NCBI GenBank assembly: GCA_965371515.1
Contig: CBDUYR010000028.1
Span: 1-35,218 of the forward strand
DNA: 35,218 nucleotides
Source of the DNA: an uncultured bacterium
GTDB lineage: Bacteria; Krumholzibacteriota; Krumholzibacteriia; Krumholzibacteriales; Krumholzibacteriaceae
Direction: 5' to 3'
The notes under the pieces: generated by a model
Databases searched by the model: none
Told to the model about the DNA's origin: nothing
What the model saw: only the letters and a program-made list of their open reading frames with translations
Program-made: the position numbers and the translations under genes
Shown here: positions 4,985 through 7,882 of the stretch, piece by piece
Layout: each line of letters begins with the position of its first letter
Numbering within the stretch: position 1 is the first letter of the stretch

Positions 4985-5002
4985 GCTCCTCCGATTAACC
5001 CC

Positions 5003-5036
5003 TTGACAATTCTATCATATTGATATATTAGTATAT
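5003..5036 (+). promoter_or_regulatory. promoter and palindromic operator of the ArsR operon
   Basis: TTGACA at 5003-5008 followed by AT-rich inverted repeats TATCA-TAT-TGATA (5013-5025) and ATATA-TTAG-TATAT (5023-5036) that overlap the -10 region. Confidence 0.6.
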
Positions 5037-5042
5037 GAACAT

Positions 5043-5459
5043 ATGAAAGGAACGGACTTGGCCGCAAAAAATGATAACGGTACCTTCGACGCAATCGCCT
5101 GCAGGCTCAGGGCAATGTCGGACCCTGCAAGGCTCGCCATAATCCACTGCCTCTGCAGCGGAGAGAGGAACGTATCATGCATCGTCGAGGAGACGGGTTA
5201 CGGCCAGGCCTGCGTATCGAAGCATCTGAGTATACTGCGTCGGCACGAACTGGTCAGTACCCGGCGTGACCACAGGAAGATCTTCTACAGCCTTACCAGC
5301 ACCCTTCCTGAGGACATTTGCCGAATGGTCTGCAGATCAATTGAAGACTCGACATCAGATCGACTGGACGCGCTGCGCAGTTTTTATCCGCGACAGTCGG
5401 CGGGGGGTCCCGGTATACCCCCTGCCGGCCGACCGGCGGCCGGAGGCGATCCTGAATGA
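5043..5459 (+). CDS. ArsR/SmtB family transcriptional regulator, Cys-rich
   Basis: LRAMSDPARLAII...VSKHLSILRR..LV..RR...IFYSL winged-helix pattern; 7 Cys including C-terminal CxxxC. True start may be TTG 5058 (AAGGA SD). Confidence 0.9.
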   Translation: MKGTDLAAKNDNGTFDAIACRLRAMSDPARLAIIHCLCSGERNVSCIVEETGYGQACVSKHLSILRRHELVSTRRDHRKIFYSLTSTLPEDICRMVCRSIEDSTSDRLDALRSFYPRQSAGGPGIPPAGRPAAGGDPE

Positions 5460-5635
5460 GTTACCATATATCGAGGACAGTCGACCTGGATTTCAACGAG
5501 GCGGTCTCGAGGACCATCGAGGAACTGAAGAAGGAAGGGTTCGGCGTTCTGACCGACGTAGTGGAAAACGAGGCCCTCGCGCCGATCGGAACGCTGGTCC
5601 GCGAGAAACTCTCAAAAGTCGTAGAGGGGGTCTGA
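5456..5635 (+). CDS. short DUF302-like protein, apparently internally deleted (59 aa; possible pseudogene)
   Basis: MSYHISRTVDLDFNEAVSRTIEELKKEGFGVLTDVVENEALAPIGTLVREKLSKVVEGV. N- and C-termini resemble DUF302 proteins; the central part is absent. ATGA overlap with the arsR stop and GGAGG SD. Confidence 0.7.
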   Translation: MSYHISRTVDLDFNEAVSRTIEELKKEGFGVLTDVVENEALAPIGTLVREKLSKVVEGV

Positions 5636-5638
5636 GGT

Positions 5639-5806
5639 ATGAGCGAGATCCTGAAACTGCTTCTGTTCCTCGCGGTATGGATCGTGATAATGAGGATAGT
5701 GCTGCCCCGTATGGGCGTCCCCACCTGAATGAGCGGGACTTGCGATACCGGGGACCGGTATGAGGATAAAGAGACGAAGGAAAAAAACGACAGCGGAGGA
5801 GAATAG
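5639..5806 (+). CDS. small membrane protein, candidate selenoprotein (UGA at 5726-5728; 29 aa if UGA is a stop, 55 aa if Sec)
   Basis: MSEILKLLLFLAVWIVIMRIVLPRMGVPT-(TGA)-MSGTCDTGDRYEDKETKEKNDSGGE-TAG. The TAG abuts the next ATG, and a hairpin follows the TGA. Confidence 0.7.
5745..5761 (+). promoter_or_regulatory. candidate bacterial SECIS element 1
   Basis: Perfect stem ATACCGG/CCGGTAT with loop GGA; the loop starts 23 nt after the UGA and begins with G. Confidence 0.55.
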
Positions 5807-5980
5807 ATGCCGATCTACGAATACAGGTGCGAAAAGTGCGGGAAGCACTTCGAGGAACTCGTTATGAACTCCTCGCAGAAGGTCGCCTGCCCCGGCTGCG
5901 ACAGCGAAAGAGTCGAGATGGAGTTCTCTCTCTTCGCCAGCTCCGCGTCCGGTTGCGCCCCGTCGGGAGGTTTTGGCTGA
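5807..5980 (+). CDS. FmdB family zinc-ribbon protein (possible Sec read-through to 5995)
   Basis: MPIYEYRCEKCGKHFEELV...VACPGCDS...GCAPSGGFG-TGA; classic MPxYEYxCxxCG...CPxC pattern; GGAGGAG SD. Confidence 0.9.
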   Translation: MPIYEYRCEKCGKHFEELVMNSSQKVACPGCDSERVEMEFSLFASSASGCAPSGGFG

Positions 5981-5994
5981 AACCCCTTCAGATA

Positions 5995-6013
5995 GGGCGG
6001 CGGTTCGCCGCTC
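5995..6013 (+). promoter_or_regulatory. candidate bacterial SECIS element 2
   Basis: Stem GGGCGGCG/CGCCGCTC (one G-U pair) with loop GTT; the loop starts 22 nt after the UGA at 5978-5980. Confidence 0.4.
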
Positions 6014-6051
6014 GAGAGCTAGACCGGGCCCGACGGCCCGTTCAGTCACGC

Positions 6052-6089
6052 AAAGAACCGGCCGCCATTACGGCGGCCGGTTCTTTTTT
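6052..6089. terminator. intrinsic terminator, probably bidirectional
   Basis: AAAGAACCGGCCGCC-ATTAC-GGCGGCCGGTTCTTTTTT between the convergent ArsR operon and the tRNA genes. Confidence 0.85.
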
Positions 6090-6090
6090 C

Positions 6091-6165
6091 TGGTAGCCCC
6101 TAGGGGAATTGAACCCCTGATTCATGGCTGAGAACCATGCGTCCTGACCACTAGACTAAGGGGCC
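6091..6165 (-). tRNA. tRNA-Glu (CTC)
   Basis: Reverse complement GGCCCCTTAGTCTAGTGG...CATGG-TTCTCAG-CCATG...GGTTCAATTCC...GGGGCTACCA; cloverleaf with encoded CCA. Confidence 0.95.
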
Positions 6166-6176
6166 ATTATATTAAA

Positions 6177-6250
6177 TGGCTGGAGAGGGAGGACTCGAAC
6201 CCCCATCGGCTGATCCAGAGTCAGCTGTCCTACCGTTGGACGACTCTCCA
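6177..6250 (-). tRNA. tRNA-Gln (CTG)
   Basis: Reverse complement TGGAGAGTCGTCCAACGGTAGGACA-GCTGA-CTCTGGA-TCAGC...GGTTCGAGTCC...CTCTCCAGCCA. Confidence 0.95.
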
Positions 6251-6310
6251 GAAAGTACAAGACAAGTTACAATATTTGATGCGCCTGCGCAATATCCTTT
6301 GTGAAATAAA

Positions 6311-7882
6311 TCAGCGTCTGGCAACCCCGGCGGCCTTCCTGAGGCGTTCTACCGTCTTTACCTTGCCGAGAAGGACTATCACCTGGAAGATATCGGGAGA
6401 CACGGTGCCGCCGGTAAGGGCGACCCGACTTGGATGGATCAGTTCGCCTGCCTCTATCTTCATCCCGTCGGCGAGGGTCCTGAGCGTCTCCTCCACCCTC
6501 TCCCTGTCGAAATAGTTCAGATCCTCGAGCGAATCGGCAAGTCTATTGAGGCGCTCCGGCACTTCCTTGCGCATCAGGTGGGTCTCAACGGCGTTATCGT
6601 CCACATCGTAGTCATCCTTGTAGAAATATCCGATATGACCGGGCGCGTCTTTGAGGAGTTTCAGCCTGTTTCCGAGAGCCGAGACAATCAGGTAAAGGCG
6701 CCCCAGCTCGTCGCTTTCCGCCCTTTCGCCACCCTCTGCACCATTTCCGATCAGCGGTTCGGTACCGGGAACGAGCTTCAGATCGACCGGTTTTTCGAGA
6801 TCGACGTGGAAATCGCCTGGGATATACTCATTATCCCTCAGAACGTGATATACATGCATGACCTTCTGCGCCGGAGACAGCTTCTTGAAATGCTCGGCGT
6901 TGATATATTCCATCTTGTCGTTGTCGAACATCGCCGGATTTTTCGACACCTTCTTCAGTGAGAACTTGTCTATCAGCGCCTTTTTCGAGAAGAGTTCCTG
7001 ACGGTCGTCGAACGACCATCCGAGCAGGGCAAGGTAGTTGACCATTGCGTCGGGCAGGTACTGCTGATCGCTGTACCAGTCGATGGATACCGCTCCGTGT
7101 CGCTTGCTCAGCCTCGCCCTGTCGCTGCCCAGTATCATCGGCAGGTGCGCGAACTTCGGCACGCGGTAACCGAGCGCCAGGTAGATGTGGACCTGCCTCG
7201 GCGTGTTGGAGAGGTGATCGTCCCCCCTGATTACATGGCTGATCTTCATCCTCGCGTCGTCGACGACGACGGCAAAATTGTACGTGGGAAGGCCGTCCGA
7301 TTTTATCAGCACGAAGTCGTCGAGCTCGGAATTAGCAACCTTGAAATCGCCTCTGACGATGTCCCTGAACCGCGCCTCGCCCTCCTCGGGCATCCTGAAA
7401 CGGAGAACGTGCGGCTCGCCGGCCTTGATCCTGTCATCCGCCTCTTCGACTGACAGGGACCGGCAGAGGCTGTCGTACCTTATCGGAAGTTTATTTTCTT
7501 TTTGTTCGACCTTGAGTTCTTCGAGTCTTCCGGGGGGACAGAAACAGTAATAGGCCTTTCCCTCCTCTATCAGCCTGGCCGCGTCGGTATGATAGAGCAC
7601 ACCCCTTGCCGACTGTACGTACGGACCGTAGTCGCCGCCGACATCGGGCCCCTCGTCCCAGTCAAGCCCGAGCCAGCGCATCCCCCTGATGATCCCCTCG
7701 TACGATTCACGCGTCGAACGCTTGGCGTCGGTATCCTCGATCCGCAGGACGAAGACGCCGCCCGTCTTTCTCGCGTAGAGCCAGTTGAACAGGGCCGTCC
7801 TCGCCCCTCCGACATGCAGGTGGCCCGTCGGGCTCGGCGCAAACCGTACTCTGATCGTATTTCCGCCGCTGTCATCGATCAT
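6311..7882 (-). CDS. gltX: glutamate--tRNA ligase
   Basis: RVRFAPSPTGHLHVGG (HIGH motif), LRIEDTD, HVIRGDDH, RLSKRHG (KMSKS motif) and a C-terminal anticodon-binding domain. Confidence 0.97.
   Translation of the reverse strand: MIDDSGGNTIRVRFAPSPTGHLHVGGARTALFNWLYARKTGGVFVLRIEDTDAKRSTRESYEGIIRGMRWLGLDWDEGPDVGGDYGPYVQSARGVLYHTDAARLIEEGKAYYCFCPPGRLEELKVEQKENKLPIRYDSLCRSLSVEEADDRIKAGEPHVLRFRMPEEGEARFRDIVRGDFKVANSELDDFVLIKSDGLPTYNFAVVVDDARMKISHVIRGDDHLSNTPRQVHIYLALGYRVPKFAHLPMILGSDRARLSKRHGAVSIDWYSDQQYLPDAMVNYLALLGWSFDDRQELFSKKALIDKFSLKKVSKNPAMFDNDKMEYINAEHFKKLSPAQKVMHVYHVLRDNEYIPGDFHVDLEKPVDLKLVPGTEPLIGNGAEGGERAESDELGRLYLIVSALGNRLKLLKDAPGHIGYFYKDDYDVDDNAVETHLMRKEVPERLNRLADSLEDLNYFDRERVEETLRTLADGMKIEAGELIHPSRVALTGGTVSPDIFQVIVLLGKVKTVERLRKAAGVARR

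Follow-up and report, generated by a model that had tools for sequence, protein, structure and literature searches.

The window analyzed here is a stretch of 35,218 nt (positions 1-35,218, forward strand, of contig CBDUYR010000028.1) from the genome of an uncultured bacterium of the Krumholzibacteriaceae (GenBank assembly GCA_965371515.1), and comparison of its sequence with those of related and unrelated bacteria leads us to conclude that positions 5639-5806 very probably represent a genuine selenoprotein gene. We consider it likely that this gene of 55 codons encodes a membrane peptide with one helix, and that its in-frame TGA (5726-5728) is read as selenocysteine (Sec, U) via the hairpin at 5745-5761. 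A redox or chalcogen-relay function of the peptide, which is deduced from its gene neighborhoods only, is proposed tentatively. Recoding of UGA by a selenocysteine insertion sequence (SECIS) hairpin is textbook biology; what is new here is the family, apparently unlisted, that is decoded in this ordinary way. Soluble thioredoxin-fold enzymes otherwise dominate the selenoproteome, to which the peptide would contribute a membrane-anchored micro-protein.

The Peptide Gene and Its In-Frame TGA

The gene begins with an ATG at 5639, 8 nt upstream of which is the purine-rich sequence GAGGGGG, and continues for 29 codons (MSEILKLLLFLAVWIVIMRIVLPRMGVPT, as read from the window sequence) to the TGA. The 25 open codons that follow (MSGTCDTGDRYEDKETKEKNDSGGE, MSGTC...SGGE) are closed by a TAG at 5804-5806, which abuts, with a gap of 0 nt, the ATG at 5807 of an FmdB zinc-ribbon gene (Table 1). 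The peptide is therefore ordered as a helix, the segment LPRMGVPT, the residue encoded by TGA, MSGTC and a charged tail. The initial annotation of this region, a note made from the letters of the window, had placed the ATG, the TGA, the 25 open codons and the TAG abutting the next ATG correctly, and its proposal of a selenoprotein is supported by the conserved TGA, the cysteine homologs, the Sec machinery and the covarying hairpin described below.

Table 1. Features of the peptide gene and the surrounding region in the window.
Feature	Position	Strand	Basis or remarks
ArsR/SmtB-family repressor gene, first of the putative operon	5043..5459	+	NF033788, 71.6 bits (cut-off 55); PF01022
DUF302-like remnant, 59 codons, in-frame internal deletion variant	5456..5635	+	Local profile seeded with a PF03625 protein
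Peptide gene, predicted selenoprotein	5639..5806	+	55 codons; coordinates include the stop TAG
In-frame TGA, predicted Sec codon, residue 30	5726..5728	+	TGA in 45/45 relatives' loci and 89/89 pattern matches
Cys35 codon, U-x4-C motif	5741..5743	+	T and G invariant, third base C or T, in 96 distinct sequences
SECIS-like hairpin, 7-bp stem, GGA loop	5745..5761	+	Comparative alignment, covariation
FmdB-family zinc ribbon, predicted to run through TGA 5978-5980 to TAG 5993-5995	5807..5995	+	TIGR02605, 56.8 bits (cut-off 31.3)
Second SECIS-like hairpin, loop GTT 6003-6005, 22 nt past the TGA	5996..6012	+	
Terminator-like hairpin, 15 pairs, then a T run; putative operon end	6052..6086	+	

A six-frame search with the read-through peptide was conducted on 61 genomes, comprising the window's own and 60 relatives, and gave a match at E <= 1e-3 in 43 of them, with exactly one in-frame TGA in all 43. 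Among genomes of the same family 34 of 36 were matched, and the two without a match are 61% and 71% complete. We read 45 loci, which are the 43 matches plus two weaker class-level matches, and found TGA at the homologous codon in every one, followed by [ML][SG]xxC. The consensus of these loci is W-[FI]-V-x-M-[KR]-F-x-L-P-R-x-G-[VI]-[PS]-T-U-[ML]-[SG]-x-x-C-x-x-G-D-R, after which comes a K/E/D-rich tail of variable length. When the 45 loci are taken with 89 further stretches found by a DNA pattern scan (see below), neither TAA nor TAG occurs at the Sec codon in any of the 134 loci; it is always TGA.

Conservation also extends past this codon. The Cys at +5 is written as both TGC and TGT among 96 distinct sequences, and the frame of the TGA stays open for at least 17 codons beyond it in 106/106 distinct loci (median 25), while the other two frames attain 15 codons in only 64/106 and 45/106. 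The genome from which the window derives is 99.6% complete and carries selA (506 bits), selB (362 bits), selD (365 bits) and tRNA-Sec (71.5 bits), all over the curated cut-offs, and SelB was found over its cut-off in each of five tested carriers from other lineages. The homologs, the conservation downstream of the UGA and the Sec genes, which the initial annotation had named as the places to look, thus all agree with its proposal.

The selD gene of this genome (G000:C5:35926-36852, locus L008) has one in-frame TGA of its own, and its selenophosphate synthetase presumably contains Sec too, which is the case in many organisms that use Sec.

Cysteine Forms and the Extent of the Family

Natural homologs that carry Cys at the position of the TGA, whose existence the initial annotation had anticipated, are numerous. 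The protein P0003, found by a word-index search, reads GVPT-C-MSGTC, with its Cys aligned to the TGA column, invariant in alignment A1. A profile of 46 sequences, run on 1.84 billion representatives, returned 1157 proteins at E <= 1e-3, 30 of which were at E <= 1e-10. Among the best 151 of the 1157, 110 have a Cys at the TGA position together with a Cys five residues on (C-x4-C), and P0006 is one more. Another 25 of these 151 end exactly at the Thr before the TGA and are gene calls cut at that codon, and 13 (e.g., P0007, P0031, and P0046) have W at the Sec position, apparently from TGA translated as Trp under another code; one has G and one has S there. The view that the peptide is invisible to standard gene calling is borne out by these counts, which reveal an annotation gap in that public gene calls cut the peptide at the TGA or render the TGA as Trp. 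In all, the family comprises 1157 representative clusters with the Cys forms included, and the only name found for its cluster members is "hypothetical protein."

The Cys forms are a natural control that separates residues serving the protein from residues serving the RNA. The GDR that the Sec forms have past the second Cys is specified by GGG-GAC-CGN, the hairpin's top, and GDR at this place occurs in 0/110 Cys forms, so that U/C-x4-C serves the protein and GDR the RNA. Most of the 13 W-bearing relatives have a sequence other than GDR past the second Cys, which indicates that the Sec form also occurs with other variants of the hairpin. In one Cys-form member, P0146, a thioredoxin domain (TIGR01068, 105.7 bits) is attached, either by fusion or because a frame error has run the two together. 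The Cys forms gave one lead in the ESM Atlas, a "hypothetical protein" with a score of 0.85 (below the 0.9 bar), for which Planctomycetota is the commonest phylum of the five members with a phylum.

The SECIS-Like Hairpin

The hairpin downstream of the TGA is composed of ATACCGG (5745-5751), a GGA loop (5752-5754) and CCGGTAT (5755-5761), which form seven perfect pairs, and the G that begins the loop lies 23 nt past the A of the TGA. The initial annotation had these letters, the spacing and the G-first loop right, and the SECIS-like behavior that it ascribed to the hairpin is seen in a conserved place and a covarying stem. In all 45 of the relatives' loci a hairpin is found at the same distance from the TGA, and TGA, Cys and hairpin also occur together in 89/89 of the pattern matches described below.

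Covariation was assessed in an ungapped alignment (A2) of 96 distinct sequences, 40 found by protein and 56 from the DNA pattern. Pairing in A2 extends to 85.5% of cells, versus 67.1% in shuffles, and the covariation score of 0.517 (0.161 in shuffles) was attained by 0/500 shuffles; kinship among sequences can beat shuffles without structure, which is answered in part by slid controls, in which shifting the partner by 1-3 columns lowers pairing to 20-49% and collapses covariation. The three top pairs, CGG/CCG, are (near-)invariant, and the pairs beneath them change in a compensatory manner: columns 24-38 have CG in 43 sequences, GC in 25, UA in 19 and AU in 6, with 50 double changes; columns 25-37 have CG in 34, AU in 31, GC in 22 and UG in 6, with 53 double changes; and columns 26-36 have CG in 40, UA in 33 and UG in 23, with 33 double changes. 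These covarying columns were free (N) in the DNA pattern. An eighth pair (columns 22-40) is unsupported, as 73 of the 96 sequences are unpaired there.

Predicted Membrane Topology

Based on hydrophobicity, charge and an AlphaFold2 model, the product is predicted to cross the membrane once, with its N-terminus out and Sec30 and Cys35 just inside the cytoplasm, before a disordered K/E/D-rich tail. The model, built on alignment A1, has a helix at residues 3-24 (block predicted local distance difference test [pLDDT] values of 93, 92, and 83) and coil in the remainder (60 and 53). The net charge is -0.17 in the first seven residues and +1.9 in the 12 residues past the helix, and it is this asymmetry, together with the positive-inside rule, that would place the Sec/Cys side in the cytoplasm. 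The tail past the TGA consists of 21% K, 16% E and 11% D.

Taxonomic Range and Independent Samples

To determine the range of the Sec form, an IUPAC DNA pattern (TGA, a Cys codon 12 nt on, and the hairpin top) was scanned against one genome each of 185,579 species. The scan returned 89 stretches, and a family member is encoded in 89/89. Because the pattern is blind to Cys forms and to Sec forms whose hairpin top departs from the canonical one, the taxonomic range obtained is a lower bound. Among the 80 titles listed for the 89 stretches, at least 27 are of the Geobacter, Geobacteraceae, Pelobacteraceae or Desulfuromonad- type, at least 16 are Krumholzibacteri-, at least 13 are "delta proteobacterium" and at least 11 are unclassified, with smaller numbers of Syntrophobacter- (at least four), Desulfobacter-, Acidobacteriota and UBP1 (at least two each), and Latescibacterota, Fibrobacteraceae and Patescibacteria (at least one each). 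The TGA, the Cys five residues on and the hairpin are conserved in at least four named phyla, and the bacteria with Sec forms are those of anaerobic sediment and soil. The peptides closest to that of the window are those of Krumholzibacteriota records. There is a cultured, non-pathogenic carrier among the pattern matches, Geobacter argillaceus ATCC BAA-1139, which makes the selenoprotein claim directly testable; its gene is at 2446-2607 of locus L100 on the minus strand (record NZ_VLLN01000025.1).

Three Geobacter-type metagenome-assembled genomes each have two Sec-form copies (L074 and L122, L076 and L114, L096 and L126), on different contigs and in different neighborhoods.

Metagenomes that several studies obtained from marine sediment and cold seeps also contain the stretch. 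DNA contigs from three runs of other studies cover 5638-6100 (X4), 5695-6050 (X5) and 5557-5913 (X8), and no difference is listed for these contigs at 5726-5728 or 5978-5980. The TGA at 5726-5728 has thus been seen in three independent DNA metagenomes and is not an assembly error.

Relationship to Known Selenoproteins and Protein Families

When the peptide was read with Cys at the TGA, NCBIfam 20.0 gave 0 families at E <= 1, and the sole row from Pfam-A was Arabinose_trans (E 0.026, 13.8 bits versus a cut-off of 25). Only sub-threshold chance rows were obtained for 26 Cys forms against Pfam and NCBIfam. A 2026 table (Table 1 of PMC13188914) lists 119 prokaryotic selenoprotein families and subfamilies, among which there is neither a U-x4-C motif nor a peptide of one helix (PMC13188914). 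Its "predicted with high confidence" class is similar to our case in kind of evidence, with Sec/Cys pairs, TGA-bearing homologs and a SECIS (PMC13188914). The nearest family by motif is TsoA, with LULAxC, a U-x3-C (PMC13188914); its NCBIfam model, like all others, gave no match at E <= 1 to the peptide or to 27 Cys forms, and it is set apart from our peptide by the table entry and the model only. MerT-type mercury transporters (PF02411) are also listed as a selenoprotein family (PMC13188914). These and the YgaP-like TM proteins (PF11127) resemble the peptide in being short membrane proteins with Cys/Sec pairs thought to handle sulfur or soft metals; however, they have two or three helices, whereas the peptide has one helix with the Sec/Cys pair outside it and matched neither model.

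With respect to the bacterial SECIS model, as far as the accessible part of its description goes, the apical loop lies 16-37 nt from the UGA and the first or second loop position holds a G (PMC13188914). The peptide gene is similar to canonical SelB/SECIS genes, as described in the same accessible part, in its in-frame UGA, a hairpin that lies within the coding region, a G-first loop at 23 nt, Cys homologs and the presence of selA, selB, selD and tRNA-Sec (PMC13188914). It is unlike them in having only 55 codons, a stem of only 6-7 bp, a 3-nt loop, no Rfam match and an unlisted family. Nothing like the peptide was found in the accessible portions of deep-Sep, BSepDB and the Global Ocean Sampling paper (PMC2398784), and a full-text search of the literature, supplements being outside its reach, found no description of the family. 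The family is apparently unlisted in the selenoprotein lists and family libraries that we checked.

SELENOK and SELENOS are eukaryotic single-pass membrane selenoproteins with a 3'-UTR SECIS and Sec near the C-terminus. In outline they are like the peptide, with one membrane helix and then a disordered cytosolic tail with Sec, although this is an analogy only, and the Sec of the peptide, unlike theirs, adjoins the membrane.

Gene Neighborhood and the Putative Operon

The genes from 5043 to 5995 are spaced tightly, with the arsR stop overlapping the next start and later gaps of 3 nt and 0 nt, and we infer from this spacing that they form one operon ending at the terminator-like hairpin. The ORF between arsR and the peptide gene had no match in Pfam or NCBIfam. 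Contigs from two other metagenomes (X5 record 13 and X8 record 17) are longer than the window by 207 bases (69 codons, in frame) between 5561 and 5557, and a 5-nt repeat flanks these bases. The 59-codon DUF302-like ORF of the window results either from a deletion at strain level or from a collapse in assembly.

Local profiles, with Pfam-typed neighbors as seeds, were used to survey the surroundings of the gene in the 106 distinct loci. An FmdB gene lies 0-60 nt downstream on the same strand in 51/106 loci, an ArsR gene is present in 51/106 (within 100 nt and on the same strand in 43/106), and both occur together in 35/106. The order in the window's clade is a MATE exporter, arsR, DUF302 (in the window's genus), the peptide, fmdB, tRNA-Glu and tRNA-Gln, and gltX lies on the opposite strand. 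At Geobacter-type loci the peptide is located between a C-GCAxxG-C-C gene (within 100 nt in 13) and a YgaP-like TM gene, PF11127 (within 100 nt in 14), after which come genes for an MBL-fold protein (11) and a rhodanese (18), and an RND pump lies upstream (21), all counts being of the 106 loci. A second Geobacter type has arsR, the peptide and then rhodanese, and in a "Delta" type a TlpA/ResA-like thiol-disulfide oxidoreductase precedes the peptide and arsR follows it. OsmC-like proteins are also among the recurring sulfur/redox neighbor families, several neighbor families being named "(seleno)protein" in NCBIfam.

The Neighboring FmdB Gene as a Candidate Second Selenoprotein

The FmdB gene that abuts the peptide gene (PF09723, 55.5 bits, cut-off 34.4) has knuckles CEKC and CPGC, and its end reads ...SGCAPSGGFG-TGA, followed by AAC CCC TTC AGA TAG (NPFR). 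In 51/51 of the downstream FmdB genes such a TGA is followed by 1-4 codons and a second stop, with 3 codons in 27 genes, 4 in 12, 2 in 6 and 1 in 6. The core of the second hairpin, CGGC-GGTC(C)-GCCG, is conserved in 43 of 49 distinct sequences, with 12 and 14 double changes in the two lower pairs; the remaining six, of the "U-G-stop" type with a different-looking hairpin, were not included in this comparison. From these sequence features we consider that the FmdB gene is probably a second selenoprotein, with Sec near its C-terminus, and the conserved TGA and hairpin in 51/51 loci suggest that the ArsR repressor probably stands in front of a two-selenoprotein operon. Close database homologs of the FmdB protein all stop at ...SGG(F)G, and a search with this query returned no Cys homolog for the short extension.

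FmdB selenoproteins have been reported before. In the accessible part of the paper on Global Ocean Sampling reads, two sequences have Sec in a CxxU or UxxU knuckle (PMC2398784), and an FmdB selenoprotein is listed as UxxU in the 2026 table (PMC13188914). The ocean-read proteins, so far as that accessible part describes them, are similar to the FmdB protein of the window in being zinc ribbons with a probable Sec, but differ in that their Sec is in a knuckle, whereas here the four knuckle Cys are kept and the TGA is 1-4 codons before the true C-terminus (PMC2398784).

Proposed Mechanism and Alternative Explanations

By the canonical bacterial mechanism, SelB, together with Sec-tRNA(Sec), would attach to the hairpin at the time when the ribosome is positioned on the UGA, and translation would continue to the TAG at 5804. 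Judging from the neighborhoods, the peptide would be made from an arsR-(DUF302 remnant)-peptide-fmdB operon under the control of a thiol-switch-type, Cys-bearing ArsR repressor. On the cytoplasmic side of the membrane surface, Sec30 and Cys35 might alternate between a selenol/thiol and a selenenylsulfide state, or might be carriers of sulfane sulfur or selenium; the likely partner in this would be the FmdB zinc-ribbon protein, which probably has Sec at its own C-terminal TGA. The peptide gene and the gene for the Sec-tipped FmdB point to a small, ArsR-controlled, selenium-dependent module. A more specific proposal, which is speculative and which we ourselves hold with some doubt, is that the two form an undescribed two-selenoprotein module, a bacterial system dedicated to the sensing or detoxification of reactive sulfur or selenium species at the inner membrane face, in which the membrane Sec/Cys site would exchange selenenylsulfide, diselenide or sulfane sulfur/selenium with the Sec-tipped zinc-ribbon tail, an ArsR-type thiol sensor would be the switch, and the whole would have spread between phyla. 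If this is true, the module is built from two of the smallest selenoproteins known.

The main alternative, which accepts the same selenoprotein, is that its Sec/Cys pair binds, on the inner side of the membrane, a metalloid or soft metal (Hg, Cd, Cu(I), As(III), or Zn/Fe bound jointly by two peptides), and that the peptide serves an exporter as chaperone or sensor and is controlled by a metalloregulator of the ArsR type; this we regard as unlikely. The upstream regulator does belong to the ArsR/SmtB metalloregulator family, but the ArsR proteins score equally against BigR-type (sulfite/persulfide) and metal-sensor models, all below cut-off. Similarly, exporters are found upstream, a MATE exporter in the window's clade and RND pumps in 21/106 loci, but the RND pumps score best as the general multidrug type and not as CusA/CzcA. 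The partner FmdB is a four-Cys zinc ribbon, small CCK-ending membrane proteins lie beside the Geobacter-type copies, and metal-handling families are on the published list, such as those of a putative mercuric transport protein and of a metal-binding double selenoprotein (PMC13188914). Against these points, the recurring neighbors are of sulfur and redox families (rhodanese, MBL-fold, C-GCAxxG-C-C, TlpA/ResA-like and OsmC-like), thioredoxin is fused to one Cys form, and a known metal-resistance gene adjoins the peptide gene in none of the loci read.

Several observations weigh against the reading of the gene as a selenoprotein of redox or relay function that we favor. With regard to function, the neighborhoods vary between phyla and the function is read from them only, in 19/106 loci the retrieved DNA contains no recurrent partner, the multidrug type of the RND pumps does not discriminate between a redox and a metal role, and the AlphaFold2 model has the Sec/Cys region as coil at a pLDDT of 53-60. 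With regard to the hairpin, folding of 5720-5790 alone gives z = -0.78, with 44/200 shuffles folding equally well, which means that the significance of the hairpin rests on comparison; Rfam gave no SECIS match in 5000-6300 at E <= 1, the rows being two tRNAs and three weak unrelated ones; and in loci L065-L153 the hairpin top is invariant in part because the scan pattern required CGGGGACCG. The same CGGGGACCG is present in 35 of the 40 protein-found sequences of A2. With regard to the Sec residue, an NCBI record that is 82% identical, P0002, has Gly at its position and keeps the CNTGDR after it, which may be explained by mutation of TGA to GGA, by an error or by decay of the copy, and no report of selenium incorporation in any family member was found in the literature searched. 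Lastly, a metatranscriptome contig of 151 nt (X16), with 12 differences and a depth of 2.7, bridges the TGA into the next gene, with coverage by X16 at 5117-5289 and 5672-5812 only; it is a single contig of a relative, from a library that may hold DNA, and we take it as a weak hint of transcription in a relative.

Were the TGA a real stop, the product would be a 29-residue membrane peptide and the hairpin a regulatory or stabilizing RNA, or the ATG past the TGA would restart a separate peptide of 25 residues. Such an ATG does immediately follow the TGA in the window and in most relatives, the fold of the single sequence is unremarkable, and public gene callers end the ORF at the TGA in 25/151 best matches. 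However, in 110/151 best relatives the site is spanned by single polypeptides with Cys at the TGA and M-S-G-x-C kept, within which the Met must be a conserved residue and not a start, and several Sec forms have CTG, ATA, GGC, GCC or GTG after the TGA. The exclusive use of TGA in the 134 loci, the frame that is open in all 106, the position and G-first loop of the hairpin, which fit the accessible part of the published bacterial SECIS model (PMC13188914), and the presence of SelB in all carriers tested argue in the same direction, and we consider termination at this codon very improbable. That there is no gene here, and that a short ORF with no Pfam or NCBIfam match, uncalled by standard rules, coincides by chance with a hairpin in an intergenic spacer, is hardly credible in view of the cross-phylum conservation of the protein (1157 relatives), the conserved synteny and the covariation.

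Additional Observations on Neighboring Genes

The YgaP-like two-helix proteins encoded downstream of the peptide at L076, L080, L081, L084, L086, L099, L109, L115, L120, and L123 end in ...PKSxCCK. They were considered as hidden selenoproteins, a candidacy that was dropped because of these ...CCK ends and because the stop is not TGA in 2/13. The translated stretch past their TGA is alike between loci, for which the overlap of the next gene is perhaps the reason. On the minus strand of the window, tRNA-Glu(CTC) and tRNA-Gln(CTG) are located at 6091-6250 beside a glutamyl-tRNA synthetase gene (6311-7882); the arrangement recurs next to the operon in 41/106 loci and looks ordinary.

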